Source: Candidatus Falkowbacteria bacterium RIFOXYA2_FULL_47_19
GTDB taxonomy: Bacteria; Patescibacteriota; Patescibacteriia; Patescibacteriales; UBA12075
DNA: 64,000 nucleotides
Assembly (NCBI GenBank): GCA_001780275.1
Contig: MFGB01000016.1
Span: 27,205-91,204, forward strand
Reading direction: 5' to 3'
How positions within the stretch are numbered: the stretch's first letter is position 1; every line of letters starts with the position of its first letter. Shown here in pieces: positions 7,632 to 62,929 of this stretch. The notes under the pieces are model-generated. The model made no database searches, was not told the DNA's origin, and worked only from the letters and a program-made list of their open reading frames with translations. The position numbers and the translations under genes are program-made.

Positions 7632-7996
7632 TAAATATAAAACGCCTGGCAAAAAGCTTTAAATACGCTTTCCAGGGGCTTGTTAAAACCTTTAAGGAGG
7701 AGCAGAACCTTAAGCTTCAGACCGGTATTGCCATTTTGGCTGTGATTTTAGCCGTTTTTTTCCGTATCAGCCGTCTGGAGTGGTGTTTTCTGGTTTTTAC
7801 TATCGGTCTGGTTATACTCATGGAAATCGCCAATAGCGCCGTAGAAAGAATAACCGACGTGCTTAAACCAAGGATTAACAGCTATGTTAAGGAAATAAAG
7901 GATATTATGGCGGCGGCGGTAATGCTTTCCTCGATGGTCGCTATAATTATCGGTTTAATAATTTTTTTTCCGTATATACGGCCATTTTTTATTTGA
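7628..7996 (+). CDS. dgkA: diacylglycerol/undecaprenol kinase (DgkA family)
   Basis: 122 aa with three TM segments and a MEIANSAVERITD motif typical of DgkA. Sits in the usual ybeY-dgkA arrangement. Confidence 0.85.
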   Translation: MINIKRLAKSFKYAFQGLVKTFKEEQNLKLQTGIAILAVILAVFFRISRLEWCFLVFTIGLVILMEIANSAVERITDVLKPRINSYVKEIKDIMAAAVMLSSMVAIIIGLIIFFPYIRPFFI

Positions 7997-8047
7997 AATT
8001 TTCAGCATAAATGCTATAATTAATTAACGATAAAGGAATTTGAGTAT

Positions 8048-8140
8048 TTCGTTAAAATTCGTGAGTATTCGTTATTTTCGTGTTTACGGTTTTTGGGCGT
8101 CAAAGACGAAAATTGCGAAATATCACGAAAAAACAAAACG
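8048..8140. repeat. phased TTCGT x4 / ACGAA x3 inverted array (copy A)
   Basis: TTCGT starts at 8048, 8058, 8068 and 8077. The inverse (A/G)CGAA starts at 8106, 8115 and 8125. The 38-nt left arm matches copy B at 35 of 38 positions. Confidence 0.8.
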
Positions 8141-8166
8141 TGCCAAAGACCTAATTTTTTAAAGAT

Positions 8167-9423
8167 ATGAAAGAAAACATCATCGCCGGACTTGATATCG
8201 GTTCAACCGCCGTAAGGCTCGTGATCGGACATAGGAAAGGCGGAGGATCAAAGGAATCCCTGCAGATCATCGGCGCGGTCAGCGTTCCGTCCGAAGGAAT
8301 CAACCGGGGAGCCGTGAAAAGCATAGAAGATGTGACTTCTTCTATTTCAGCTTGCCTCGAAAAAGCGGAGAGGCTTGTCGGGCTTCCGGTGGAAACGGTT
8401 TGGGTAAGCATCAACAGTCCGCACATAAAATGCGAGAAAAGCCGGGGTGTCGTGGCCGTGGGTCGGAGTGACGGCGAGATCAACCAGGATGACGTTGAAC
8501 GCGCCCTGGAAGCCGCCCGAGCCATGTCGGTTCCCCCTAATTACGAAATACTCCACGTGATTCCCGTAAAATTCACGGTAGACAGCCAGGAGGACATAAA
8601 AGACCCGATCGGTATGACCGGCATAAGGCTTGAGGTAGAGACGCTCGTTATCCAGGGGCTTTCAAGTCAGATAAAAAATCTTACTAAAGCGATATTCCGG
8701 ACCGGACTCGATATCGAAGATCTGGTTTCATCGCCTTTGGCGGCCGCTGAAGCCGTGATCGGAACGAAGCAGAAAGAACTGGGCGCAGCCCTGGTCAATA
8801 TCGGCGCCTCGACCACGAGTCTGGCCGTTTTTGAAGAAGGGGAGCTTCTGCATACGGCCGTCATACCGATAGGCTCCGAACATATTACTGCCGATATCGC
8901 TATTGGCCTTCGCTGCCCGATAAACCTGGCCGAAAGGATTAAGAACGAATACGGCTGTGTCCGGCCCGAACAAATAAATAAAAAAGACGAGATCGATATT
9001 AGCAATCTGGCGAAAGAAGAGAACGCCGAAGGCGAACTTTCTACGGTTTCGCGCCGTTATCTGGCCGAGATAATAGAAGCGCGGGTTGAAGAGATATTCA
9101 ATAAGGTGGATAACGAATTCAAATCGATCGAGCGTTCCGGCATGCTTCCCGGCGGGGTGTTCCTGATCGGCGGCGGCATCAGGCTCACGGATATGGTCGA
9201 GGTCGCCAAAAGAGAACTTAAATTGCCTGTTTCCCTGGGCACGAATATAAATGTCGCGACCGTGATCGATAAAGCCAACGAAACGGAATTTTTAAACGCT
9301 TTGGGACTGGTCGTCTGGGGAAACGAAGCTATTGCCGCCGGAGGCGGTTTTTCCGCCAGCCGGACAGCAGTCAATAAATCCATCGAGAAAGTAAAGAAAT
9401 GGTTCTCATCCTTAATCCCTTAA
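8167..9423 (+). CDS. ftsA: cell division protein FtsA
   Basis: Actin-fold N-terminus (IIAGLDIGSTAVRLVIG), 418 aa, immediately upstream of ftsZ. Confidence 0.92.
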   Translation: MKENIIAGLDIGSTAVRLVIGHRKGGGSKESLQIIGAVSVPSEGINRGAVKSIEDVTSSISACLEKAERLVGLPVETVWVSINSPHIKCEKSRGVVAVGRSDGEINQDDVERALEAARAMSVPPNYEILHVIPVKFTVDSQEDIKDPIGMTGIRLEVETLVIQGLSSQIKNLTKAIFRTGLDIEDLVSSPLAAAEAVIGTKQKELGAALVNIGASTTSLAVFEEGELLHTAVIPIGSEHITADIAIGLRCPINLAERIKNEYGCVRPEQINKKDEIDISNLAKEENAEGELSTVSRRYLAEIIEARVEEIFNKVDNEFKSIERSGMLPGGVFLIGGGIRLTDMVEVAKRELKLPVSLGTNINVATVIDKANETEFLNALGLVVWGNEAIAAGGGFSASRTAVNKSIEKVKKWFSSLIP

Positions 9424-34992: not shown

Positions 34993-35063
34993 CGGGCCGT
35001 AGTATAACGGTAGTACGCGAGCATGGGGTGCTTGTAGCGAGGGTTCAATTCCCTCCGGCCCGA
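34993..35063 (+). tRNA. tRNA-Pro (anticodon GGG)
   Basis: Hand-folded cloverleaf. Acceptor CGGGCCG / CGGCCCG. D-arm GTAT-aacggta-GTAC. Anticodon stem CGAGC / GCTTG with loop AT-GGG-GT. T-arm GAGGG-ttcaatt-CCCTC. Discriminator A. CCA is not encoded. Confidence 0.9.
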
Positions 35064-35908: not shown

Positions 35909-36571
35909 TTATAAACCGGAGACAATGCGTATGAGCATTCCGATCTCCGACCAATTATGGAAGAAACGGGCGTTGGCCTCGCTTAAGCGCACGCAGCCGT
36001 GCGAATCCGGTTTTCCCGGCAACGTTTGATAATGTATCCAGTAGAGGCTTCCGTGGAACCTTACGCCCCATTTCATCGATGCTCGTTTGCCCTTTATGAA
36101 GTATTTGCTGGAAAAATGATCTTTGTCTTTTTGCAAGACATGAAATTCGCCGGTCGGGGTGGCGTGTCCCTTTTTGCCGGTCGAGACTGGCATAATATCA
36201 ATAAGCCGGCCGTATTCATAGCAATAGAAAAGCTGTTCGGAAAGGTTCATGAGCGCGGCCTTCGGCAGAGCAGCGAATTCTTCCCGGGAGGCCTTAAATT
36301 CGTCTTCGTAGATTTTAAGAACTTTTTTCCAGTTTTCTTCGTCTGCGGGAATCATGACGCTTTGCCCCGTTCTGACTTTTAACGGGTCGATCCGATTGAT
36401 TATCCCCAGAAGTTTTAACCTGAGTTCGTCATTACCGGCTATTTTGGCCAGGTTGTCGTTTTTTCCGATTTTCAGGGTTGCGTATCGGATCGAATCGTTA
36501 TCAAAGCCGGATGCCGGAACAGATCCCGTCCAAACAAACAACAAAAAGAGCGCCAGCCAGAATTTTTTCAT
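35909..36571 (-). CDS. L,D-transpeptidase (YkuD domain) with an N-terminal LysM-like segment
   Basis: Signal peptide. Catalytic SHGCVRL motif. HATPTGEF upstream. Confidence 0.88.
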   Translation of the reverse strand: MKKFWLALFLLFVWTGSVPASGFDNDSIRYATLKIGKNDNLAKIAGNDELRLKLLGIINRIDPLKVRTGQSVMIPADEENWKKVLKIYEDEFKASREEFAALPKAALMNLSEQLFYCYEYGRLIDIMPVSTGKKGHATPTGEFHVLQKDKDHFSSKYFIKGKRASMKWGVRFHGSLYWIHYQTLPGKPDSHGCVRLSEANARFFHNWSEIGMLIRIVSGL

Positions 36572-36710
36572 TTTCTCTCCTTGCTACTTTTGGTTTTAAA
36601 GCAAAATATTTTTAAAAGAGCTATTTTTTAAAACCGATTAAATTCTTACCTTATATTACACCTTAACTCGCGGTCTGTCAATCGTCTCTTGGTTGTGATA
36701 TGATAAAAAC

Positions 36711-38236: not shown

Positions 38237-38392
38237 TTATCACGAGCGCGGCGATCCTGGGATGAACCCGGGACGGCCCGAAGCGATTTATCGCGAACGG
38301 CCGGAGTACTGGCTCTATGACCCGCCGGCAACCATTCCCTAAAAGGAAAAGGTGCCCCTTCCAGCCCCGTAATACCGGGGAAAGATGATTTT
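38237..38392 (+). promoter_or_regulatory. SAM-I (S-box) riboswitch; core 38283-38392, preceded by a half-copy-like segment
   Basis: Core: UUUAUCgcgaaCGGCCGGAGuACUGGCuCuAUGAcccGCCGGCAACCauucc-cuaaaa-ggaaaaGGUGCCccUUCCAGccccg-uaaua-cgggGAAAGAUGA. This matches the GGAGGGACUGGCCC.AUGA..CCCGGCAACC...GGUGCCAAUUCC...AGAUAA pattern of SAM-I. Candidate promoter TTGCTT-17-TATAAT at 38177-38205. Lies upstream of metK. Confidence 0.75.
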
Positions 38393-38546: not shown

Positions 38547-39596
38547 ATGCATCACAACAATCTCTACACAGTCGAAAGCGTTACCGCCGGACACCCGGAC
38601 AAGGTCTGCGACCAGATCTCGGACGCCTGTCTGGACGCCTGCCTTAGGCAGGATCCGTCCTCCCGGGTCGCGGTCGAGACTTTCGGCGGCCACGGTCTGC
38701 TTCTGGTCGGGGGCGAGGTCACGACTAACGCGGATTTTGACGCGGCCGCGATCGCCCGGCAGGTTTATAAAGACATCGGTTATGATAATGAGCTGGAGGT
38801 GATCACGAAGATCGTCAAACAGTCGCCGGATATCGCTCAGGGCGTTGATACCGGCGGTGCCGGAGACCAGGGGATCATGTACGGATATGCGACCCGTGAA
38901 ACCGCGGAATTCATGCCCCGGGGCGTGGTTCTGGCGCATAAACTCACCCGCGGCCTGGAAGATTTAAGAAAAAGCGGGGAAATAAAATGGCTTCGTCCCG
39001 ACGGCAAGGCGCAGGTGACGCTTGAAAACGGCCGGGTTAAGAACGTTTTGGTAAGCACCCAGCACAATGAAGAGGTAGACCAGGCGGAGATCAGACGGGT
39101 CTTAATTGAAAAATTGATCGGCCCGGTTATCGGCGATTTGATCGGCGTGGATATTTTCGTGAATCCGACCGGTAAATTCTTTTTAGGCGGCTTTGCGGCC
39201 GATACCGGCCTGACCGGACGGAAGATCATGGTCGATACTTACGGCGGGCTTATTCCGCACGGCGGCGGCGCCTTTTCCGGCAAGGACGCGACTAAAGTCG
39301 ATCGCAGTGCCGCCTATATGGCCCGCTTCGCGGCCAAGAATATCGTGGCCGCTGGGCGCGCGGAGAAATGCCTCGTCTCGGTCGCTTACGCCATCGGCCA
39401 CGCCGAGCCTTTGATGGTGGAGGCGATAGACGAAAACGGAAATAGCCTCAAAGACGCGGTCAGGGGAAAATTCGATTTCCGTCCGCGCGCCATTGTTGAA
39501 AGGCTCGGTTTAAGAAAGCCGATCTTCCGGCCGACCGCGAGCTACGGCCATTTCGGCAAGGCCGGACTTCCCTGGGAAGAGATAATCGAACTATAA
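38547..39596 (+). CDS. metK: S-adenosylmethionine synthetase
   Basis: ESVTAGHPDKVCDQISDACLDA, GAGDQGIMYGYA and GGGAFSGKDATKVDRSAAY motifs. At 349 aa it is short for the family. Confidence 0.93.
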   Translation: MHHNNLYTVESVTAGHPDKVCDQISDACLDACLRQDPSSRVAVETFGGHGLLLVGGEVTTNADFDAAAIARQVYKDIGYDNELEVITKIVKQSPDIAQGVDTGGAGDQGIMYGYATRETAEFMPRGVVLAHKLTRGLEDLRKSGEIKWLRPDGKAQVTLENGRVKNVLVSTQHNEEVDQAEIRRVLIEKLIGPVIGDLIGVDIFVNPTGKFFLGGFAADTGLTGRKIMVDTYGGLIPHGGGAFSGKDATKVDRSAAYMARFAAKNIVAAGRAEKCLVSVAYAIGHAEPLMVEAIDENGNSLKDAVRGKFDFRPRAIVERLGLRKPIFRPTASYGHFGKAGLPWEEIIEL

Positions 39597-41159: not shown

Positions 41160-41389
41160 GTTATCCTTCCCTTCTTCCCCGATCGGGGATAGGCATAAAA
41201 AATAAAATTTTAACGAACGCTTATAAATTCCTCCGTTCCGGAATTTTTTCCGTTTGATTTTATCTTATCTTATTATATCCGTTTCTTTAAGTCAATTGAC
41301 AAAACAGCGGTATTATGTAAAGTTAAAGTTAACCAGATTCATGATCTTTAAAATTAATCCTTGGATAATTTAAAGAATGGAGGTCCGGG

Positions 41390-52219: not shown

Positions 52220-52753
52220 TTATTCCCGATTACCGGTAGCGGCGCGATAATCGTCTACTTTGGATTTTAAAATTTTAGTTCCCTGATAAATGATCACGCT
52301 TACGTGATTAGGCGATTTGCCGGTCAAAGCGCAGATTTCGTTTATGCTCATATGATTAAGATAGCGGTATGATATTATTTTCCGGTAATTACTTTCAAGT
52401 TTCGAAAGGAGCCTGCGGAAAATAGCTAGTTTGATCTTCAGGTCAATTTCATGTTCCTGGGTGGGACGGATCGTAATTTCTTTCTCGCCTACCTCCTCAA
52501 GCCAAAGCGGAAGTTTGTTTTTTTGGCGGTAATGATCTATTATCAGGTTGTTAGCGACCATGTAAAGGAAATTTTTATGATCTTTGACGTGATTACCCTC
52601 CAGAGCCATATAATTCCAGGTTTTCAGGAAGACATCTTGCGTAAGATCCTTGGCCAGATCGTAGTTACTTACCCGAAAATAGATATGCCTAAGAATGGCC
52701 GGAGCATGATCTTTGTAAACTTGCGAAAATTTTTCTTTGATGTTATTATCCAT
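52220..52753 (-). CDS. ECF-type RNA polymerase sigma factor (sigma-70 regions 2 and 4)
   Basis: 177 aa. Region-2-like DLTQDVFLKTW...NFLYMVANNLIIDHYR. Region-4 HTH MSINEICALTGKSPNHVSVIIYQG. Confidence 0.85.
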   Translation of the reverse strand: MDNNIKEKFSQVYKDHAPAILRHIYFRVSNYDLAKDLTQDVFLKTWNYMALEGNHVKDHKNFLYMVANNLIIDHYRQKNKLPLWLEEVGEKEITIRPTQEHEIDLKIKLAIFRRLLSKLESNYRKIISYRYLNHMSINEICALTGKSPNHVSVIIYQGTKILKSKVDDYRAATGNRE

Positions 52754-52815: not shown

Positions 52816-53649
52816 ATGAGACCCACAACTTTTATAATTTTAATATTGGTTTTTATCGCCGGTTTTTCGGGCGGATTTTACGCTTTATCCGTGATCGCCG
52901 AAAAACCTGAGCCGTCGGTTTCCGGCGGAACGCCAAACCCGGATTATGCCGCAAGGAGCCAAGCGGTCGCCGAAACGGATATCGAAACAGCGGATCGGAC
53001 GGAATTTTTCCGGAATGATCGCGCGGAGGTGGTCGGCGAAGCGACGACGACAAGGAAGGAAGAGGAGGAGCTGTCGCTGGAGGTCCCTTTCGTGTCCCAG
53101 GCGCCTCTGGGTGATTGGAGCGACCCGCGCCAGCAAGACGGTTGCGAAGAAGCTTCCGCGTTTATGGCCGTTCTTTGGGCCCGTAACGAGGCCGCGCCCA
53201 CCCCACCCCAGGTGCTTAAAGAGATCATTGCCATATCCGAGCATGAAAATGAAAAGTACGGCAGTTTTCACGACACTTCGGCGAAAGATACGGGCGAGCG
53301 GATTCTTATTGATTATTTCGGCCATGAGCGGTTCAAGGTAAAATACGATTTTAACGTCGATGACATAAAAAACGAACTCGCTCTCGGCCACCCGGTTATC
53401 ATACCGGCCGATGGGCGTAAGTTGAGGAATCCGTTTTATACTCCTCCCGGACCGGAGCGGCATATGCTCATAATCAAAGGTTATGATCCGGCCAAAAAAG
53501 AGTTCATTACGAACGATCCCGGCACGAGACAGGGGGAAAATTACCGTTATGGGGAGGAATTATTATTCGAAGCCATCAGGGATTACCCCACCGGAAATCA
53601 CGAAGTTCAAAACGGAGCCGGTAAAGCTATGATCGTAATTTTCAAATAA
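52816..53649 (+). CDS. secreted/membrane-anchored C39-like (peptidase_C39_2-type) cysteine peptidase domain protein
   Basis: N-terminal TM segment. VPFVSQAPLGDWSDPRQQDGCEEAS holds the putative catalytic Cys, with a downstream GHPVIIP His. Confidence 0.65.
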   Translation: MRPTTFIILILVFIAGFSGGFYALSVIAEKPEPSVSGGTPNPDYAARSQAVAETDIETADRTEFFRNDRAEVVGEATTTRKEEEELSLEVPFVSQAPLGDWSDPRQQDGCEEASAFMAVLWARNEAAPTPPQVLKEIIAISEHENEKYGSFHDTSAKDTGERILIDYFGHERFKVKYDFNVDDIKNELALGHPVIIPADGRKLRNPFYTPPGPERHMLIIKGYDPAKKEFITNDPGTRQGENYRYGEELLFEAIRDYPTGNHEVQNGAGKAMIVIFK

Positions 53650-54830: not shown

Positions 54831-54954
54831 CGCGTAGACTTAATGGAATTTTTAATATTGCCATAATTTACCATATTATAATTACGGACGAATTAAAGGT
54901 TAATTTAAAGTCTATTTTTTTTTAATCATAAATTTTATTTCCGGTCGGTCAAAG

Positions 54955-54963: not shown

Positions 54964-55286
54964 AGCCTTAAAAATATATAAAAATTAAAAAATTCCGCGG
55001 CCCGCGCGCTCCGGATTTTTATTTTTTTGATCGGACCGGCGTTTAAATTTAAGATTAATAATTAATTAAAATATAATACACGGATAGCGCTAACTTAAAA
55101 TAATATTAAAACTTATATTATTCCGCTTCAAAATCCGCCAAAACGCGATATTAAATTCGGATTAAAAAATATTTGACAAGCCAAAACGCATAGTATATCA
55201 TACCCCCGCATCCGGATATCGGGCTACCCGCCCCGGAGCGCATTAAAGATCGATTGCTAATTCATTAAGAAATAAATAAAAGCCTT

Positions 55287-56729
55287 ATGAAAAAAAATAT
55301 TCTTCTGGCGATTGGCGCTTTTATCGTTATCGGCCTCTTATTCGTTCCGCTCCTGGATTTTTTTTATGATCTGGGCGGCTTCGCTAAAGCCGATCCGCGG
55401 CCGTTTACCGTCGAGGGCTTATTCGCCGGGCGGAGCGGGGAGGGAGGGGAAATTTTTCCGGTAACCGTAGCCACTTCAGCGGAGGCCTATGAAGATTTGC
55501 CGGTCGGAGAGGTTTCCTTCCACGAGATTGCCGATCCGAAAGGGACCGTTGTCCTTATTCCGCAGAATCACCAGTATCCCGGTTCGGCCGCCGAGGATCC
55601 GAAAAACGATTCGGCGGAGAAAACCCAGGCGCAGATATACGATATCCTGAAGCACCTGCACGAAGAAAATGGCATCGATTTTATAATGACCGAGGGCGAC
55701 CTTAATGGCGACGTGCCTGCGGAAAAGCTCGCCGCGCTTGCCGAGAAGATCGATCTGCGCGACGAATTCGCCGTTCGAATCGAAAAATTGCGGGTTGAAG
55801 CCGACGGAAAATTAGATCCGGGAGCGGAAAAGAATCTATTAGTGAAAGCGGAAAAATTGATCGCCTCCCTGGACCGGGAGATAATACTGAAAGGCGCCCC
55901 CTATAAGCTTAAGGCCGAAGGCGTGGATTTTAAGCTTGTCGGGTCGGAAAACGAGGAGACTCGCGAAGAGTGCGCGGATATTGTCCGGAATTATATTTAC
56001 CAGCAAGACCAGTTAAAAACCTGCAACGGTTTGGCGGCGGGGAATGATTCATCGGTCTTGACTGGAAACGGTACAACCGCCGCTACGCAGGAGAAGTTGC
56101 GGGTTCTGAAAGATAAATTAAAAACGTTTAAGGACCTGCCTTTATCAGAAAGGCTTAAGGCCCTGCAAACGGAATTCAAATCAAAGGATCTTTCTTTCAT
56201 GATCGCGTCGGAAGACCTTAATGGCTTAACGGGCGGTAATTCGCTCCTGGAAAAGATCCGGCAGATCAAGACATTAAGCGCGGGCCAGGTGTCCCTTGAC
56301 AAAGAGTTTAGCGAGCTTTTGACGGTTGCTAACGCCCGCGGCGAAAAGGCTCTAACCGACAAATTAACGGCGGCGAAAGAAGCGTACCAGAAGATCGAAG
56401 ACTTTAAAAGCGGGAAGCAAGGCGCTTTGACCTCGTCTTCTCCTTCCAGAAGCGATAATCCCTACAAAACGATCACGGATCCGGTCAAGCTGCAAACGAT
56501 GATAAAAGAGTCGGAGGGTATGATCCAGACGGTGGTTATCGACCAAAGGAACCGGGAAACGGCGGTTAATTTCGTTTCGGCAATGGAGACGGCCGGAGAA
56601 AAAATCGGCATCCTGCAATTCGGCGCCGGCCACGAAGAAGGTCTGATCAAAGAATTGAATAACCAGGCTTTAAACGTCATCGTTATCAAGGCGGATGAGG
56701 TTTTAAGAAGAGAGAAGACCGGGGAATAA
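55287..56729 (+). CDS. hypothetical secreted/membrane-anchored protein
   Basis: N-terminal TM segment ILLAIGAFIVIGLLFVPLL. 480 aa. Promoter TTGACA-17-TATCAT at 55174-55202. Confidence 0.6.
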   Translation: MKKNILLAIGAFIVIGLLFVPLLDFFYDLGGFAKADPRPFTVEGLFAGRSGEGGEIFPVTVATSAEAYEDLPVGEVSFHEIADPKGTVVLIPQNHQYPGSAAEDPKNDSAEKTQAQIYDILKHLHEENGIDFIMTEGDLNGDVPAEKLAALAEKIDLRDEFAVRIEKLRVEADGKLDPGAEKNLLVKAEKLIASLDREIILKGAPYKLKAEGVDFKLVGSENEETREECADIVRNYIYQQDQLKTCNGLAAGNDSSVLTGNGTTAATQEKLRVLKDKLKTFKDLPLSERLKALQTEFKSKDLSFMIASEDLNGLTGGNSLLEKIRQIKTLSAGQVSLDKEFSELLTVANARGEKALTDKLTAAKEAYQKIEDFKSGKQGALTSSSPSRSDNPYKTITDPVKLQTMIKESEGMIQTVVIDQRNRETAVNFVSAMETAGEKIGILQFGAGHEEGLIKELNNQALNVIVIKADEVLRREKTGE

Positions 56730-56763
56730 TATTGATTATAAAAAACAGGTATACAGGTATATA

Positions 56764-56800
56764 GAGCGGCTCGGCTGATAATATCAGCCGGGCGCTTTTA
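56764..56800 (+). terminator. intrinsic terminator
   Basis: CGGCTGATA / TATCAGCCG stem extended by AGCG..CGCT, followed by TTTTA. Confidence 0.7.
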
Positions 56801-56811
56801 TTGACAAATCA

Positions 56812-57318
56812 TCAATTGAACAGCTGGTCTAAAATAAAAATATCGCCTAAGGCGCCGCCGTCCGCGTTGAGGATCTTACTGTCTTTCCGGAAGAGCCGGT
56901 CCAATACGAACAGATCGCCCGGGCCGAGAGGGCCGTTATCTTCGAACAGTCGGCCGTTATTCATGATCTGGTCCAGGATAATAAGATCGCCCAAGGACGT
57001 CCGGCCGGGTTCAAGAAGAGAATGTCCGTCAAACAGTTTATCCAAAACGAACAGATCGCCCAGATTCAAATTTTCGGCTTGTTCCATGAGCGCGTATTCT
57101 TCCGAGGCCGGGTCATAGCCGTTGATATCAGGACCGAATAAACGCCGGACAGCATCCTCCGCCGTCCCTTCGATCGGCTTGTTTTTATCGTCAGCGGAAT
57201 CGTCTATCTCCAGAGCGACAGTATCGGCCAATTCATGCATGCGCGCCGAAGCGGCCAAATACCAGAAATTAGAAGCGGTCATGATAATTATAGTAAGTAT
57301 GATAATCGGTCTTTTCAT
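56812..57318 (-). CDS. secreted LGDLFxLDxLF-repeat protein, paralog 1
   Basis: Signal/TM N-terminus. Motifs LGDLFVLDKLF, LGDLIILDQIM, PGDLFVLDRLF and LGDIFILDQLF. The start codon sits in a CATATG context. Confidence 0.75.
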   Translation of the reverse strand: MKRPIIILTIIIMTASNFWYLAASARMHELADTVALEIDDSADDKNKPIEGTAEDAVRRLFGPDINGYDPASEEYALMEQAENLNLGDLFVLDKLFDGHSLLEPGRTSLGDLIILDQIMNNGRLFEDNGPLGPGDLFVLDRLFRKDSKILNADGGALGDIFILDQLFN

Positions 57319-57388
57319 ATGGTTTACTTGTCTTTATACCTTAATAAATATTCCTTAAAATCGCGTGAATAAATTTTTGCGTGAAAAT

Positions 57389-57418
57389 AAAAAAGACGGC
57401 TATTTCGCCGTCTTTTTT
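57389..57418 (-). terminator. intrinsic terminator of paralog 2
   Basis: AAAAAAGACGGC-gaaata-GCCGTCTTTTTT on the minus strand, followed by ATTTT. Confidence 0.8.
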
Positions 57419-57439
57419 GATCCCTTTGTACTTCTTGGG

Positions 57440-57829
57440 TTATTTCGTTGTACTGTCGCTGCCGTCGAACAGGCTACCACCGTTGTCATTGAATAATCGA
57501 TCAAGGATAAAGAGCTCGCCTAGATTACTGCCACCCCCGATCCCTCCGCTACCGAAGAGTCGATCAAGCACGAAGAGGTCGCCCAAGTCGCTGCCGCCCC
57601 CGATCCCTCCGCTACCGAAGAGTCGATCAAGCACGAAGAGCTTGCCTAGATTATTATTATCATTATCCGAGCCGAAAATATCTCCGCCGTTGCCTCCGCC
57701 AAAAAGCTGATCCAGGATCAGGAGATCCCCCAAATTACTATTACTGCTGTTCAGGACATTAGCGGAAGCCGTTACCGGCATTAAAGTTACGGCCAAGATC
57801 GATAGACTTATTAGTATTTTGTTGATCAT
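57440..57829 (-). CDS. secreted LGDLFxLDxLF-repeat protein, paralog 2
   Basis: Signal peptide ..LMPVTASA. Motifs LGDLLILDQLF, LGKLFVLDRLF, LGDLFVLDRLF and LGELFILDRLF, separated by Gly-rich linkers. Contains an internal 63-bp tandem duplication. Confidence 0.8.
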   Translation of the reverse strand: MINKILISLSILAVTLMPVTASANVLNSSNSNLGDLLILDQLFGGGNGGDIFGSDNDNNNLGKLFVLDRLFGSGGIGGGSDLGDLFVLDRLFGSGGIGGGSNLGELFILDRLFNDNGGSLFDGSDSTTK

Positions 57830-57911
57830 ATGATTTTGGCTTTAAGCCTTAATTAATAATTAATCCCGGGAGAAATCTTATTATTGAGAATGATTCCCGT
57901 ATATATAAAAA

Positions 57912-57935
57912 GACGGTTGGGGAAATTTTTATGAG
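57912..57935 (-). promoter_or_regulatory. CTCAT-N15-CGTC bipartite promoter-like motif upstream of paralog 2
   Basis: The minus strand reads CTCAT aaaaatttccccaac CGTCTTT. The geometry matches the three ATCAT-N15-CGTC copies. Confidence 0.45.
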
Positions 57936-57962
57936 AGGATTACAATCTCTTTACGATAGATT

Positions 57963-58008
57963 AAGAATAAAATAAGAGACGAGATATCTCGTCTCTTATT
58001 TTATTCTT
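57963..58008. terminator. 46-nt perfect palindrome (bidirectional terminator)
   Basis: AAGAATAAAATAAGAGACGAGAT followed directly by its exact reverse complement ATCTCGTCTCTTATTTTATTCTT. Confidence 0.75.
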
Positions 58009-58024
58009 ATCTCAAGATAAATAT

Positions 58025-58657
58025 CTAATTGACCGCCAGTGAACCGGGCGCTACCGGAATTTGTTCGATATTGGCGTTGGTAATCCCTAAGCCCCTATCC
58101 TCAATGAGGTTGAACGCGCCGGCCGCGCCGATTACCGGTATAATGCTCCTGTCCGTCGGATTGACGTAATAAAGCTTGCCGCTGTCCTCGACCTTAAGGA
58201 GGAATTTGCCGGCCAAGCGGGACGGAGCAGTACCGCCGAACGCGTCAAAATTCGCGTTCGTAATACCGGTGGCTTGTTCCCCCATGATGGTCAGGGCAGC
58301 CTGCGGTCCGTTCAGGTAATAGCGCTGCGTGTCTGCCGGGTTTACGTACCAGGCTCGTCCATCAGCTTCGGTCTGGATAAGGATCCGGCCGGACAGCCGC
58401 TGTCTTAAGGGAGTCGGCGCCACCGCTACCGGTGCTGTCGTTTGCTGCGGAAATAGCTGGTCCAGGATGAACAGGTCGCCTAAATTAGTTTGCGAGTCGT
58501 CACCTACATTGAACAGCCTATCCAGCGCGAACAGATCGCCGATATTGCCCGCGCCGTTTAGACCGTTAAGAATTCCGGCGGCGGCGGCCGGAGCCATCGG
58601 CGACATAACGCCCATTACGACTGCCGCGACCGCGAAAACGGAAATTATTCTCTTCAT
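58025..58657 (-). CDS. secreted LGDLFxLDxLF-repeat protein, paralog 3, fused to two GEAWYV-type modules
   Basis: Signal peptide ..SPMAPAAAAG. Motifs IGDLFALDRLF and LGDLFILDQLF, then GRILIQTEADGRAWYVNPADTQRYYLNGPQAALTIMGEQATGIT and GKFLLKVEDSGKLYYVNPTDRS...LIEDRGLGIT. Confidence 0.8.
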   Translation of the reverse strand: MKRIISVFAVAAVVMGVMSPMAPAAAAGILNGLNGAGNIGDLFALDRLFNVGDDSQTNLGDLFILDQLFPQQTTAPVAVAPTPLRQRLSGRILIQTEADGRAWYVNPADTQRYYLNGPQAALTIMGEQATGITNANFDAFGGTAPSRLAGKFLLKVEDSGKLYYVNPTDRSIIPVIGAAGAFNLIEDRGLGITNANIEQIPVAPGSLAVN

Positions 58658-58860
58658 ATGATTGCATCTTGATACGAGGACGAAAGTTTATTCCGAAATA
58701 AAACTTCGGAATTATTTTTCGATCCTCGATGTTCGATTGTTTAACAACGCTTCCCCCGACCTTTGTTTTCACCCTTGAAACCTTAAAAAGATTTCAGGGA
58801 AGCGATTTGTTCTTTAAAGATATAATTCTAATTCTTTTATTATGACCCCATAATATATAT

Positions 58861-58884
58861 GACGCTTGATTTTAATATTATGAT
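58861..58884 (-). promoter_or_regulatory. ATCAT-N15-CGTC bipartite promoter-like motif upstream of paralog 3
   Basis: The minus strand reads ATCAT aatattaaaatcaag CGTCATA, inside a 60-nt block homologous to 59629-59688. Confidence 0.5.
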
Positions 58885-58890
58885 TGAATT

Positions 58891-58928
58891 AAATTAAGAG
58901 ACCGGGGTACACCACGGTCTCTTAATTT
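58891..58928 (-). terminator. terminator of paralog 4
   Basis: AAATTAAGAGACCG-10 nt-CGGTCTCTTAATTT. Confidence 0.7.
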
Positions 58929-58950
58929 ATTTTATCCGACTAGTTCTAAT

Positions 58951-59469
58951 TTAGAGAGCATCGCCGCCGAAAAGCTGATCCAGAATAAAGATATCGCCCA
59001 GATTGGCGTTATCGCCATTGCCGAATAATCTGCTCATGATGAAAAGCTCTCCCAAACCGCCGCTGCCGGTATCTAGTATGCCGCCGCTCTCTCCGGAAGT
59101 GCCATCGTTAAAGAGCTGATCCAGGATAAAGATATCGCCCAGATTGGCGTCGGTGTCATCGCCGCCGAAGAGCCTGTCCAAAACGAATAATTCTCCCAGG
59201 TCGCTGCTGCCGCTGCCGGTATCTAGTATGCCGCCGCTCTCTCCGGAAGTGCCATCGTTAAAGAGCTGATCCAGGATAAAGATATCTCCCAGATTCGCGT
59301 TGGTGTCATCGCCGCCGAAGAGCCTGTCCAAAACGAATAATTCTCCCAAGTCGCTGCTGCCGCTGCCGCTATCGAGTATGCCCGCGTTAGCCGTAACCGG
59401 CGCGGTTATGACGGCGCCGATTGCCAGAGCGAATACCGCTAGACTGGCAATTATTTTTTTTCCTACCAT
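58951..59469 (-). CDS. secreted LGDLFxLDxLF-repeat protein, paralog 4 (three tandem 50-aa units)
   Basis: Likely start is MVGKKIIASLAVFALAIGAVITAPVTANA at 59469; the track uses GTG at 59514. The unit GILDxGSGSSDLGELFVLDRLFGGDDTxANLGDIFILDQLFNDGTSGESG occurs twice nearly identically (150-bp DNA repeat, 59083-59382), followed by a diverged third unit. Confidence 0.8.
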   Translation of the reverse strand: MVGKKIIASLAVFALAIGAVITAPVTANAGILDSGSGSSDLGELFVLDRLFGGDDTNANLGDIFILDQLFNDGTSGESGGILDTGSGSSDLGELFVLDRLFGGDDTDANLGDIFILDQLFNDGTSGESGGILDTGSGGLGELFIMSRLFGNGDNANLGDIFILDQLFGGDAL

Positions 59470-59652
59470 ATGTTTAGTTTTTAGGTTTATTAACTTGATT
59501 ACGATCTTCTTCACGACCTTTGGTCGAGGGCAAGGTCATCGGCAGGGGTCATGTCCTTATTTGACCTTTTTTAGATGAAGAAGTTAATAGAATTATATCT
59601 TCAAGAATTGATTATTTATTTTATTTATCTTTTATCGCCCCCTAAATATTAT

Positions 59653-59676
59653 GACGGATAACTTTCATATTATGAT
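59653..59676 (-). promoter_or_regulatory. ATCAT-N15-CGTC bipartite promoter-like motif upstream of paralog 4
   Basis: The minus strand reads ATCAT aatatgaaagttatc CGTCATA. Confidence 0.5.
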
Positions 59677-59721
59677 TATGTTAAATTCATGCGTTTTTAG
59701 TCTTACCTGTGGATATTAGCC

Positions 59722-59884
59722 AAATAAAAATCTTCCCCCGACCTTTAAAAACGGTTACGCTTCCCTTTGATATGTTAATATCTTTAAAGAGGCTTATAAC
59801 GCGGGAAGCGCAACCGGGGGAAGATTTAAGACCCTGTCTTCAGATCCCGAGAAAGGCAGGGTTTGTGTTTATAAGCCTCCTAAA
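59722..59884 (-). ncRNA. candidate small RNA (about 160 nt) between an ATCAT-N15-CGTC motif and an intrinsic terminator
   Basis: Nested helices TCTTCCCCCG / CGGGGGAAGA (59731-40 / 59815-24) and CGCTTCCC / GGGAAGCG (59758-65 / 59803-10), followed on the minus strand by TTTTTATTT. A competing 11-bp helix GAGGCTTATAA / TTATAAGCCTC (59789-99 / 59869-79) sequesters an AGGAGG. Extra hairpin at 59832-59862. No start codon after the SD-like sequence. Confidence 0.5.
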
Positions 59885-59890
59885 ATCTAA

Positions 59891-59914
59891 GACGGTCCCC
59901 GTTATTATTATGAT
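59891..59914 (-). promoter_or_regulatory. ATCAT-N15-CGTC bipartite promoter-like motif upstream of the candidate sRNA
   Basis: The minus strand reads ATCAT aataataacggggac CGTCTTA, directly after the terminator at 59921-59955. Confidence 0.5.
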
Positions 59915-59920
59915 AGGATT

Positions 59921-59955
59921 AAAAACAAAAAGCCGCCCGCTAAAAGCCGGGCGGC
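59921..59955 (-). terminator. intrinsic terminator of the 59963..60376 gene
   Basis: GCCGCCCG-8 nt-CGGGCGGC, with TTTTTGTTTTT on the minus strand. Confidence 0.8.
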
Positions 59956-59962
59956 AACGATT

Positions 59963-60376
59963 TTATGGAGTTGGCCGGATGATTAAAAATTGTAAATCCG
60001 GATCCGGTTCAATGGACACGATGCAGATATCATTGGGGCCGGTAACCCAGATGATGTCTTTCGGGTGTTTCGTCCGATATTTTTTCCGCAAGTATCCTTC
60101 AGACCCAAAGGAGTGGACAACCTTGCCCTTGAGCACGAGACGATAGATGATTTCGCCCTTGCCCTTGTGGAGAGCCGCGTTTTTAAGGGCTTGGGGGATG
60201 CCGTCTATTTCCGCGACGGTTTTGTTCGGGCGGGAAAATATCCAGACGGGTTGAGGATGGCTCATCTCCTCTTTGATTTCATGGGTTATAAGCGCGAAAA
60301 TGCTCAATATCGCCCCGACGATCATTGCTGTCTTCACGAAAAAATACAAACCATTAATGATTTTGAAAGAGCGCAT
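59963..60376 (-). CDS. hypothetical membrane-anchored protein
   Basis: 137 aa with an N-terminal TM helix (TAMIVGAILSIFALI), followed by its own terminator. Confidence 0.55.
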   Translation of the reverse strand: MRSFKIINGLYFFVKTAMIVGAILSIFALITHEIKEEMSHPQPVWIFSRPNKTVAEIDGIPQALKNAALHKGKGEIIYRLVLKGKVVHSFGSEGYLRKKYRTKHPKDIIWVTGPNDICIVSIEPDPDLQFLIIRPTP

Positions 60377-60567
60377 CTTCGTTCCTTTCTATGATTTAAG
60401 GTAAAATGTGAGTTTTATATTTAATTATAATAGCATATAAGTTAAATTTTGTCAAGTTGTTACTTTTTTGTTAAAAATTCGTTATAAATATTGTTAGCCA
60501 AACAAATAAATATATATTATAATATATACTAGAGCGTGGCTCTAGTTATGAAATTAACTTAAATTTT

Positions 60568-61131
60568 ATGAATATCGGCGTGGATGAAATATCGGCGATA
60601 AAACAATGCCAAGCCGGAGATCCGGAAAAATTCGGCGTTTTATACGATAAATATATAAAAAAGATCTACGATTTCGTTTATTACAAGACCCATCACCGGG
60701 AAACGGCCGAAGATCTTACTTCCAGAATTTTCATGAAAGCTCTGGAGAATATCGGCGGTTTTGATCCCGGCAAAGGCACTTTTCAGGCCTGGATCTATAG
60801 GATCGCGCGCAATACGGTCATTGATCATTACCGGACGTCCAGAGCGCACGCGAATATCGAAGACGTTTGGGATCTGTCCGGGAATGATGATCCGGAACGG
60901 GATATTGACGCGAAAACCAAACTCGAAAAAGTTAGAAAGTATTTGGCGAAACTGAAACCGATCGAACGGGATATAGTGATCATGCGCGTTTGGCAGGGGA
61001 TGAATCACAAAGAGATCGCGGCCGTAATGGGCAAAACGGAGGCGGGAGTTAAAATGGCTTTTTCGCGGACGATAACAAAGCTCCGGGAAGAGATGCCGTT
61101 GGCGATCTTTCTTTCCTTTTTTATGCAGTGA
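60568..61131 (+). CDS. ECF-type RNA polymerase sigma factor
   Basis: Region 2 (AEDLTSRIFMKALENI..FQAWIYRIARNTVIDHYR) and a region 4 HTH (MNHKEIAAVMGKTEAGVKMAFSR). The 5' UTR hairpin ACTAGAGC-gtg-GCTCTAGT lies at 60530-60548. Confidence 0.88.
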   Translation: MNIGVDEISAIKQCQAGDPEKFGVLYDKYIKKIYDFVYYKTHHRETAEDLTSRIFMKALENIGGFDPGKGTFQAWIYRIARNTVIDHYRTSRAHANIEDVWDLSGNDDPERDIDAKTKLEKVRKYLAKLKPIERDIVIMRVWQGMNHKEIAAVMGKTEAGVKMAFSRTITKLREEMPLAIFLSFFMQ

Positions 61132-61201
61132 TCTTGTTACCGTGAATGATCTTTATCGTATAATTTAAGCATAAGGAATTAATAATTAAGCGATTAAATT
61201 T

Positions 61202-62929
61202 ATGAATGACACAATCAGGCAAATCCTCGATGACATCTATAAGCTTGATCCGGAACTTAAGAAACATGAGCCCGAGCTTATAAAGGTCGTGGACAACCTC
61301 TTAAAGACGCGGCCGGAGACGGAATATAATGATGATTTCGTTAAAGCTCTTCGCGCCGATATCATGGCCAAAGCCCAGTCCCTGAAGGAGAAACCGGTAA
61401 CGCTCAGGTTTTGGCAATTTCCGAAACTGTCTTATTTTTTCGGGGGAGCGATCCTGGGCGTCGCCTTGGTTATAGCGGCCGTCAGTTATTTTGATCGCCC
61501 CGGTAGTCTCGCCTTAAAGAGCGAACCGGATGCTGTGCGGCCGCGGATCGATCGTTTGGCAAGCGGCGCTTTCGGTTCTTTGGCCGGACTTGAATCGGAC
61601 GGCGGCAAATCAGCTTCCGATCTGGGCGAAAGCGGCACTATGTCCAGCCGGCAGAATTCACCGCCGCCGGCCGCCGAACAGGAAGCGGCAATGGAAGATA
61701 CCGCTTCTTTTTACGGTACCGACGCCGATAAGGGGTCGGCTAAAATAGCCCCGGAAATGGCGCCCTTGGGTATGGGCGGAGGAGGCGGCCTGGACGCACG
61801 GTCGATGATCGTTCCGCCTTACGAATGGACGAATTATAAATATGAATACACCGGAGAAGCTTTAGCGGCTCCGGCGGCGGAATTGCCGGTTTACAAGCGG
61901 AAGATAGATCCGAAAGTGCCCGGCGATCTGACGGGCCTTATCGACGGCGGGCAGACGCCTTATCTAGACTTGAATAAATTCCGGAATTTGAGAATGACGA
62001 GTTTAAGCGCGAGCGAAGACCGGAATTACGGTTATACGCTTTATTTCGATTTTTTGAACGGAATGGCCAACATCGACATGCAATGGGAAAAATGGCCTCA
62101 GCCCGGACGCGATTGCCGGGATCAAGCCTGCTTTGACGATCTGCGCCTGAAAGCGGAAGATGTGCCGGCCGATCAGGAACTTATCCGGATAGCCGATTCT
62201 TTTTTAGGGGAATACGGTATCGATAAGTCGGATTTCGGACCGGGCGAAGTGCGGAACGAATGGCGGACGATGTACGGCGCGGCGGAGATCAAGAGCGATA
62301 TCTGGATCCCGGATACCGTTACGGTCGTTTATTCGCTTAAGATCAAGGATCAAACCGTATACGAAGAATCCGGTTATACCACTGGCCTTAATGTCAGCGT
62401 CAATATACGGGAAAAAAGAGTGTCGAATATGTACGGCCTTAAGACCCTTAATTTTGAAAGTTCCGATTACGCGATGGAAACCGACACCGATCTGATCAGG
62501 CGTCTGGCCGAACGCGGCGGTAATTGGTGGGGACCGGGTATTATGGATTCGGGCAAAACCGTAACCGTTAAATTAGGCGCGCCGAAGGTCGAACTTATAT
62601 CTTATTGGCGATATGACCAGAAGAGCGGTCGCGGCGAAGAACTTTATATTCCCGCTTATATTTTTCCGATACTCAACAAAGAGGATGCCCCGAACCTGTA
62701 TCGCGACAACATCGTTGTCCCCTTGGTTAGGGAAATAATCGATGAGCAGGAAAAGAGATGGCAGGAGAATCCGCCCATGCCGCTTATAGAACCTATGCTT
62801 AAGGAGGAGGGGGCCGCCGGTTCCGGCGGCGGCGAAACCGGCGCGAATGCCGGCGGATCCGTCGCGCCGGCCGAACCCATGATCTTAGGAATTCCGGAGG
62901 CGTCTCGGGAAGATGCTCCCGTCAAATAG
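61202..62929 (+). CDS. putative anti-sigma factor-like single-pass membrane protein with a large extracytoplasmic domain
   Basis: Located immediately downstream of the ECF sigma. A cytoplasmic N-terminal segment of about 75 aa precedes one TM helix (YFFGGAILGVALVIAAVSYF) and an external region of about 480 aa. The role is assigned by architecture and position only. Confidence 0.45.
   Translation: MNDTIRQILDDIYKLDPELKKHEPELIKVVDNLLKTRPETEYNDDFVKALRADIMAKAQSLKEKPVTLRFWQFPKLSYFFGGAILGVALVIAAVSYFDRPGSLALKSEPDAVRPRIDRLASGAFGSLAGLESDGGKSASDLGESGTMSSRQNSPPPAAEQEAAMEDTASFYGTDADKGSAKIAPEMAPLGMGGGGGLDARSMIVPPYEWTNYKYEYTGEALAAPAAELPVYKRKIDPKVPGDLTGLIDGGQTPYLDLNKFRNLRMTSLSASEDRNYGYTLYFDFLNGMANIDMQWEKWPQPGRDCRDQACFDDLRLKAEDVPADQELIRIADSFLGEYGIDKSDFGPGEVRNEWRTMYGAAEIKSDIWIPDTVTVVYSLKIKDQTVYEESGYTTGLNVSVNIREKRVSNMYGLKTLNFESSDYAMETDTDLIRRLAERGGNWWGPGIMDSGKTVTVKLGAPKVELISYWRYDQKSGRGEELYIPAYIFPILNKEDAPNLYRDNIVVPLVREIIDEQEKRWQENPPMPLIEPMLKEEGAAGSGGGETGANAGGSVAPAEPMILGIPEASREDAPVK

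Follow-up and report, generated by a model that had tools for sequence, protein, structure and literature searches.

The stretch considered here (hereafter, the window) comprises 64,000 nucleotides (nt) from Candidatus Falkowbacteria bacterium RIFOXYA2_FULL_47_19 (contig MFGB01000016.1, positions 27,205 to 91,204 of the forward strand). It carries a group of genes for secreted repeat proteins, the LGDLF genes, together with two genes for sigma factors of the extracytoplasmic function (ECF) type and four bipartite, promoter-like sites. On the minus strand, from 60.4 to 56.8 kb, one finds the open reading frame (ORF) 59963-60376, site 3, site 2 with its LGDLF gene (58951-59469), site 1 with its gene (58025-58657), site 4 with its gene (57440-57829) and finally a fourth LGDLF paralog (56812-57318) with no such site upstream. 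In the LGDLF proteins, which bear signal peptides, (S/N)LGDLFVLDRLF repeats alternate with NLGDLFILDQLF repeats; no Pfam family matches these proteins, and their homologs all come from Patescibacteria/Parcubacteria. One sigma gene, sigB (52220-52753), is on the minus strand and the other, sigA (60568-61131), on the plus strand, the latter followed by a gene for a putative membrane anti-sigma factor (61202-62929). The plus strand also encodes a 480-aa membrane-anchored protein, orf480 (55287-56729), for which no Pfam or NCBIfam family was found. A preliminary description of this DNA had proposed that the sites define a candidate ECF sigma regulon, a proposal that is supported as far as sequence comparison goes.

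The four minus-strand sites were found with identical geometry where the preliminary description had placed them, its coordinates spanning 24 nt from ATCAT to CGTC versus the 27 nt printed in it. Sites 1 (58861-58884), 2 (59653-59676) and 3 (59891-59914) read ATCATAAT-N12-CGTC, with predicted transcription starts at about 58849-58851, 59643 and 59881, respectively, and site 4 (57912-57935) reads CTCATAAA-N12-CGTC. As had been claimed, three of them precede LGDLF genes and one a non-coding stretch. Site 1 is 5' of the gene for a protein with LGDLF repeats and a YVNP domain, the last base of its CGTC lying 204 nt from the ATG (58657), and the corresponding distances are 184 nt at site 2 (59469) and 83 nt at site 4 (57829), where a short leader holds a single hairpin (57867-57899) and lacks the AAAGGTCG element discussed below. 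Site 3 comes after the GC-rich terminator of ORF 59963-60376 and is followed by 160 nt devoid of ORFs, occupied by a gene-less copy of the leader. Further minus-strand terminators separate the LGDLF gene 58951-59469 from site 1 and the gene 57440-57829 from the paralog 56812-57318. In addition, a perfect 48-nt palindrome (57962-58009, 24-nt arms without loop), presumably a bidirectional terminator, lies after the 210-aa gene of site 1 and before site 4.

In the window, ATCAT-N15-CGTC occurs four times against 0.52 expected, namely at sites 1 to 3 and at one unrelated plus-strand position (23782), and the common core TCATAA-N13-CGTC retrieves exactly sites 1 to 4 and nothing else (0.16 expected; none of 100 shuffles reached four). 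A near-match, TCATAA-N14-CGGTC, is found on the plus strand at 54926-54950, in the unusually long 456-nt gap 5' of orf480, and may be due to chance or be a weak extra site. A generic TAAC-N15-18-CGTH scan of the window was set aside as not enriched (17 matches versus 22.7 expected). The homologous block of about 60 nt previously noted around two of the sites turned out to be larger, with three copies of about 65 nt (58831-58895, 59623-59687 and 59861-59925), of which the second and third share 71% and 60% identity with the first; over 36 nt, site 4 shares 75% with site 3. As the four sites are paralogs, the fact that they outnumber the chance expectation in the window does not in itself demonstrate function; the comparison between species does.

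Loci were collected from about a dozen other lineages (designated below by L numbers), those from the same species as the window (L001, L002, L006-L008 and L027, ~99% identity) being left out as conservation evidence. The upstream regions of orthologous LGDLF genes in relatives, which the preliminary description had suggested scanning, do carry the bipartite motif. The exact core TCATAA-N13-CGTC gave eight matches in the loci of other species, seven of which are directly 5' of LGDLF genes or leaders (four in L014 and one each in L015, L029 and L042), the eighth, in L021, falling inside a gene. Variant forms, which depart from this core in the first box or by one nt of spacing, also precede LGDLF genes: TTGTCATAAT-N13-CGTC in L032 and L043, ATCATAAT-N13-CGTC in L015b, AAAATAAT-N12-CGTC in L022a, TGTGGAAAAT-N12-CGTC (GGAAAAT-N12-CGTC) in L040, L041 and L044, GTAAAT-N13-CGTC in L023 and CATAAA-N13-CGTC in L009. 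The layout common to several Parcubacteria lineages is xATAAT, 12-13 nt and CGTC, upstream of LGDLF genes. When 19 promoters were aligned on CGTC, this tetranucleotide was present in all 19, an AAT ended 12-13 nt upstream in 14 and an A occupied position -15 in 17. The 9 nt 3' of CGTC were A/T-rich with no fixed sequence, and a G-rich block (GAGGG) began 9-10 nt after CGTC.

Compared with the sister species L014 and L029, the two boxes, ATCATAAT and CGTC, showed no substitution in 60 positions versus 28 in 130 for the 12-nt spacer plus the 14 nt upstream (Fisher p = 1e-5). Site 1 is identical in L014, and L029 retains both of its boxes with a diverged spacer; site 3 in L014 has 5 of its 12 spacer positions substituted, with spacer length unchanged and both boxes intact. 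Two fixed boxes joined by a spacer that is constrained in length and free in sequence constitute a promoter-like pattern.

The four boxes are probably promoters of an alternative sigma factor of the ECF type (group IV). The CGTC tetranucleotide does not vary among the four window sites, and a conserved helix of the leader RNA, P1, begins 8-10 nt downstream of it. The transcript must therefore start at or just before the P1 5' end, which leaves CGTC as the only conserved element at the -10 position; it does not resemble TATAAT but serves several ECF sigmas as an experimentally established -10. From this leader geometry and from precedents we infer that CGTC acts as the -10 element and occupies about -13 to -10. 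One published precedent with this -10 geometry is the ECF factor RpoE1 of Thermoanaerobacter tengcongensis, whose promoter is tGTTAC-N16-CGTC followed by TATA; experimental mapping placed its functional -10 bases, CGTC, at -13 to -10, showed the TATA stretch to be dispensable for recognition, and assigned the reading of -12G to the DXXR motif in sigma region 2.4 (PMC3397946). In the B. subtilis promoters of sigmaW, sigmaX, sigmaM and sigmaV, AAC is found at -35 and CGTA or CGTC at -10, with an A/T tract proximal to the -35 element (PMC5758882). By analogy, the A/T-rich 9 nt after CGTC in the LGDLF promoters would be the melted region and transcription would start at the purine opening the conserved GAGGG/GGGGG stretch. 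The (A)TCATAAT box, 12 nt upstream of CGTC, would serve as the -35-region element. Taking the spacing as ATC-N17-CGTC brings the C of ATC into register with that of the canonical AAC, and the ATAAT portion of the box might play the part of the A/T tract proximal to -35 in the B. subtilis promoters. The regulon under such promoters would be small and made up of secreted LGDLF-repeat proteins.

The resemblance to the RpoE1 system extends to the TATA-like A/T stretch after CGTC, to the distance of about 9 nt from CGTC to the predicted start, to the DXXR motif (DHYR in both window sigmas) and to the TTGTTAC-N16-CGTT found upstream of the 60568-61131 sigma gene. It stops at the -35 position, where the LGDLF promoters have (A)TCATAAT and not GTTAC. 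With the B. subtilis promoters, of the form tGAAAC-(T-tract)-N-CGT(A/C), the window sites share the bipartite organization, a CGTC/CGTA -10 element, the A/T-rich segment just 3' of the -35 core and a small, envelope- or secretion-related regulon. They differ from them in lacking AAC, and the probable cognate sigma, 52220-52753, has neither a recognisable autoregulatory promoter nor an adjacent anti-sigma gene.

The putative -35 half of the sites is lineage-specific and non-canonical. The remark in the preliminary description that it is not the classic GGAAC was borne out, since no canonical AAC is present. Read as ATC-N17-CGTC or as TCATAAT-N12-CGTC, according to which bases are taken as the -35 core, its distance to the -10 element is fixed, with one additional nt in some lineages, and the spacer sequence diverges.

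Several observations weigh against the ECF assignment. In the window the position equivalent to AAC, a feature of most ECF promoters, is occupied by ATC or CTC (AATCAT, TATCAT or CTCTCAT), AAC being seen only in the L018/L020/L036 type (TGTAAC) and in L037, and the TCATAAT block is displaced by about 3 nt towards the -10 element relative to a canonical -35 heptamer. CATAAT also makes a good -10 hexamer for sigma70, and TGn precedes it in L032 and L043. L003/L034, which have a close ortholog of the 52220-52753 sigma, present CGTC without TCATAAT. The DNA upstream of 52220-52753 and of its orthologs yielded neither TCATAAT-N12-CGTC nor a clear CGTC box, hence no obvious sign of autoregulation, and no anti-sigma gene adjoins sigmas of this type. 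Finally, the motif scan in this genome covered 64 kb only, and the aligned promoter sequences are not phylogenetically independent.

The presence of two ECF sigma genes in the locus was confirmed by Pfam (Sigma70_r2 and r4_2) and by NCBIfam TIGR02937, where the two score 75.4 and 99.2 bits (cutoff 42.9). Both proteins contain only regions 2 and 4, and their nearest solved relatives are SigL and SigW. The preliminary description had linked the sites to both genes: the ECF type of the two factors stands, but the factor that is syntenic with the sites is 52220-52753 and not the 60568-61131 sigma with its anti-sigma. In most independent lineages with enough flanking sequence an ECF-type sigma gene lies within ~3 kb of the LGDLF genes, and in most Parcubacteria lineages it is an ortholog of 52220-52753. 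In phmmer searches such orthologs were found next to LGDLF genes in L003/L031, L015 and L043 (E about 1e-45), and more distant ones in L009, L011, L017, L022 and L023 (E about 1e-21). The lineages with a 52220-type sigma carry CGTC promoters, L015 and L043 carrying TCATAAT. On the basis of this synteny the ATCAT/CGTC sites are assigned to 52220-52753, which is the most likely reader of the CGTC promoters, roughly twice as likely as the 60568-61131 sigma. The missing autoregulatory motif and neighbouring anti-sigma gene, together with the lack of TCATAAT in L003/L034, weaken this assignment.

That the sites are ECF promoters read by the 60568-61131 sigma instead is an unlikely alternative to which the layout of the locus nevertheless lends some substance. 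This is the nearest sigma gene, 650 nt from site 3, arranged with its anti-sigma gene (61202-62929) in the classical way, and its relatives accompany LGDLF genes in L018, L020 and L036. However, the promoters in those three loci are TGTAAC-N17-CGTA, with no leader, and the candidate ECF promoter of sigA itself (60457-60489, plus strand) is TTGTTAC-N16-CGTTATAA, conserved in L014 as TTG(T/A)TAC-N16-CGTTATAA. The 60568-61131 sigma thus seems to recognise another motif, one of the GT(T/A)AC-N16/17-CGT(A/T) type and not TCATAAT-N12-CGTC, and the TCATAAT lineages L015 and L043 have only the 52220-type sigma in the locus. The sigA candidate promoter stands back to back, within 60427-60489, with the sigma70-type promoter of ORF 59963-60376 on the minus strand, both being conserved in L014.

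If the CATAAT were instead the -10 hexamer of a housekeeping, sigma70-type promoter, transcription would start about 7 nt after it and the CGTC with the following 9 nt would fall within the 5' untranslated region (UTR). The variants CATAAT, GAAAAT, AATAAT and GTAAAT all retain A2 and T6 of TATAAT, and L032 and L043 read TGTCATAAT, which resembles an extended -10 form. T6 is lost, however, at window site 4 and in L009, which have CATAAA. Moreover, no TTGACA-like hexamer was found 16-18 nt upstream of either box at the LGDLF sites, where the upstream DNA is the terminator of the previous gene, and a sigma70 scan of 56500-61300 returned none of the four sites at 10 or more of 12 matches, only a weak 9/12 match overlapping site 4. 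Clear -35 boxes can be seen, by contrast, in other promoters of this genome. Its housekeeping promoters are of the canonical TTGACA-N17-TATAAT type, as illustrated by those of ORF 59963-60376 (TTGACA-N17-TATTAT, 60455-60427, minus strand) and of orf480 (TTGACA-N17-TATCAT, 55173-55201, plus strand, sigma70-like), and by several between 34 and 52 kb, where examples lie at 41296 and 45587. A sigma70 promoter would also leave unexplained the invariant CGTC, its fixed distance of 8-10 nt to P1 and the tight synteny with ECF sigma genes, so that we regard this explanation as quite improbable.

Very doubtful, in turn, is the idea that the boxes are operators for a DNA-binding regulator, for example a response regulator bound to direct repeats (TCATAAT...GTCATAAT) two helical turns apart. 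Site 2 can indeed be written ATCATAAT-N12-CGTCATAAT, a 21-nt direct repeat, and TCATAAT occurs again 38 nt downstream, in the P1 5' strand, at site 1 and in L043, but the second half-site is not conserved (CGTCTTAG, CGTCTTTT, CGTCGTCA) and no regulator gene other than the sigma factors is consistently syntenic. Scarcely credible, finally, is that the boxes are a non-functional residue of tandem gene duplication, an objection raised in the preliminary description and suggested by the clear paralogy of the four sites, but contradicted by the cross-species data and removed by the fact that the boxes recur, fixed, in distant lineages while the spacers diverge.

If the boxes are indeed ECF-type promoters, then at three of the four sites the transcript would open with a structured leader whose P1 is formed by the very 5' end. 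The preliminary description was right about the existence of the homologous block, but its downstream half and the so-called orphan RNA are a structured leader RNA that it had not recognised. Judging from the comparison of the loci, both belong to a conserved, pseudoknot-like leader with two helices, P1 and P2, and an invariant AAAGGYCG. In many LGDLF genes the 5' UTR following CGTC shows the same order of elements: (A/U)GAGGGNC... (P1 5' strand), a variable region, CUUCCCC (P2 5' strand), the P1 3' strand complementary to the first stretch, nnAAAGGYCGnn, and the purine tract GGGGAAG (P2 3' strand). In the compact leaders, some 90 nt long (two in L003, and those of L032, L034, L043, L041, L044 and L040) the P2 5' strand abuts the P1 3' strand, which implies an H-type pseudoknot topology, and in L017 P1 and P2 form two consecutive hairpins. 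The compact leader of L043 spans 869-966. Leader motifs were absent at window site 4 and in L009 and L042.

In the window, the leader of the 172-aa LGDLF gene (site 2, 59470-59643, minus strand) has P1 at 59635-59642/59526-59533, P2 at 59576-59583/59506-59513 and AAAGGTCG at 59514-59521. That of the 210-aa gene (site 1, 58658-58851, minus strand) has P2 at 58796-58804/58748-58756, AAAGGTCG at 58757-58764 and a long hairpin before the ATG. The third leader is the gene-less copy behind site 3, and three of the four occurrences of AAAGGTCG in the window fall in these leaders. TCATAAT is present twice, 38 nt apart, at window site 1 (58846-58860 and 58878-58884) and in L043 (858-900), one copy lying in the -35 region and the other in the P1 5' strand (GGGTCATAAT). 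Site 1 has kept the latter copy despite lacking the strand it would pair with, a hint of a sequence-specific role.

The helices are backed by covariation. RNAalifold, run on a sequence-only MAFFT alignment of seven compact leaders, predicted exactly P1 de novo, and 97.5% of the P1 positions were paired, with four pairs changed on both sides, versus 30-58% when the partner was slid. MAFFT misaligned the long and divergent leaders when all were included, and the unbiased covariation count is limited to the seven compact ones. In a partner-swap test on 21 leaders the best P1 and P2 were sought in each leader and the partners then exchanged between lineages as control: P1 scored 490 versus 326±14 and P2 420 versus 323±10, with none of 5000 permutations reaching the observed value in either case. 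P2 shows a compensatory change within the window itself, CGCUUCCCU/GGGGAAGCG at site 1 against CUUCUUCA/UGAAGAAG at site 2, and the L029 ortholog of site 1 has CACCCCUU/AAGGGGUG. The sample is small: the unbiased alignment comprises seven sequences, and about 12 lineages are represented in all. Forward matches of a covariance model built on the compact form (R1) were all 5' of LGDLF genes, except the weakest one, at 36571-36638 of the window (E 0.95).

Two results speak less well for the window copies. The P1 5' sequence is present in the site 1 leader and its 3' partner was not found, and R1 did not retrieve the three insertion-rich leaders of the window at E <= 1, the L014 ortholog of site 2 being borderline. 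The window copies are therefore counted as members on the strength of their common 5' sequence, of AAAGGTCG and of the helix search. In Rfam 15 (4227 families) no match over the leaders was found at E <= 10 in the window, nor at E <= 5 in L032, L034, L041 and L043. The predicted leader is a conserved, covariation-backed structure at a fixed 5' UTR position of one gene family that had not been described before. A coding reading of AAAGGTCG(GGGG), which some gene callers place inside an ORF (as 'KVGG'), was rejected, as its frame relative to the ATG is not conserved, being out of frame at site 1, and indels of 0-7 nt occur between AAAGGTCG and P2. Likewise, P2 plus a U-run was discarded as a general terminator, the U-run being present in the orphan copy only.

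This orphan copy (59720-59881, minus strand) is a full leader, with a 13-bp P1 (59869-59881/59787-59799), an 11-bp P2 (59817-59827/59728-59738), AAAGGTCG at 59739-59746, extra helices at 59831-59862 and 59803-59815/59753-59765, and the U-run after P2. Its minimum free energy is -59.4 kcal/mol (z -4.15 versus shuffles), and it is conserved in L014. In L015 (2572-2800) an equally placed complete leader precedes what remains of a decayed LGDLF coding sequence (TTTGTCCTGGATCAGCTGTTC, still readable as FVLDQLF), after which comes a terminator. The simplest reading suggested by this leader with its decayed gene is that the orphan RNA is likewise a complete leader whose gene was lost, and the L015 locus may be seen as a snapshot of how an orphan leader can arise.

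Compact H-type pseudoknots are known among cis-regulatory RNAs, for example the SAM-II, preQ1-II and fluoride riboswitches. The compact LGDLF leaders share with these the order stem 1 5' strand, stem 2 5' strand, stem 1 3' strand, conserved loop and stem 2 3' strand, the location in a 5' UTR and the engagement of a purine-rich, Shine-Dalgarno-like 3' strand in a helix. The LGDLF leader differs from them in having no Rfam match, in the distance of its purine tract from the start codon (20-110 nt) and in the successive P1 and P2 hairpins of L017. All four LGDLF genes (starts at 57829, 58657, 59469 and 57318, minus strand) share the start context A-CATATG and lack a nearby Shine-Dalgarno sequence, the sole purine-rich tract in the vicinity being the P2 3' strand, 20-110 nt upstream. 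Another parallel is offered by the ompA and aprE leaders, 5'-terminal stem-loops that stabilise abundant mRNAs: P1 uses the first nucleotides of the predicted transcript and LGDLF genes encode secreted, probably abundant proteins, but the invariant unpaired AAAGGYCG and the second helix go beyond a simple stabiliser. For the LGDLF leader the probable role is either to stabilise the mRNA or to impose a second level of control, after initiation. Speculatively, it might sequester the Shine-Dalgarno-like purine tract or present AAAGGYCG to a ligand or protein, and/or P1 might stabilise the mRNA.

As regards the neighbouring genes, orf480 is the most constant neighbour of the LGDLF genes and is nearly always convergent to them, with orthologs in L003, L009, L011, L014-L025, L028, L030-L034, L038-L041 and L044. 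A gene for a C39-like peptidase (52816-53649, plus strand) is divergent from the 52220-52753 sigma gene and another is found in the L025 locus (7686-8372); the enzyme might process the secreted repeat proteins. The LGDLF gene 58951-59469 contains a 150-nt tandem unit (59059-59358, minus strand) with copies 97% identical, one of which is missing from the same-species strains L001 and L002 (122-aa versus 172-aa product), indicating that the repeat number is polymorphic. The 168-aa paralog of the window is identical to a protein of Candidatus Falkowbacteria RIFOXYB2_FULL_47_14. Elsewhere in the window, the Rfam scan at gathering thresholds detected only a tRNA gene (34993-35063, plus strand) and an S-adenosylmethionine (SAM) riboswitch (38285-38391, plus strand, 51.6 bits, above the gathering score), 5' of ORF 38547-39596. 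A 1721-aa ORF (14-5179, plus strand) lies in a segment of higher G+C content, 0.57-0.58 versus about 0.46 elsewhere.

ECF promoters and regulons are of a kind already known, and what would be new here is the phylum, the non-AAC -35 element and the undescribed leader RNA. Transcriptional regulation in the Candidate Phyla Radiation (CPR) is almost uncharted: nothing relevant on promoters or structured RNAs in CPR/Parcubacteria was found in the searched literature, nor, as far as it shows, has any alternative-sigma promoter been described in this radiation. The locus offers a testable sigma-promoter pair, for which nature supplies four promoter variants within this genome and a dozen among its relatives. 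If the -35 assignment is right, the -35 specificities of ECF factors extend beyond the AAC type. The leader is a candidate new regulatory RNA family restricted to the Parcubacteria/Patescibacteria group. A bolder and rather doubtful proposal is that a dedicated, divergent ECF sigma reads TCATAAT plus CGTC across Parcubacteria, that the pseudoknot leader is a new ligand- or protein-sensing RNA class for LGDLF genes, and that the gene-less copy (59720-59881) acts in trans as a decoy or sponge. The ECF sigma, the 480-aa membrane protein and the secreted LGDLF-repeat proteins form a conserved module, which these ultra-small, probably host-dependent bacteria evidently keep under special control.

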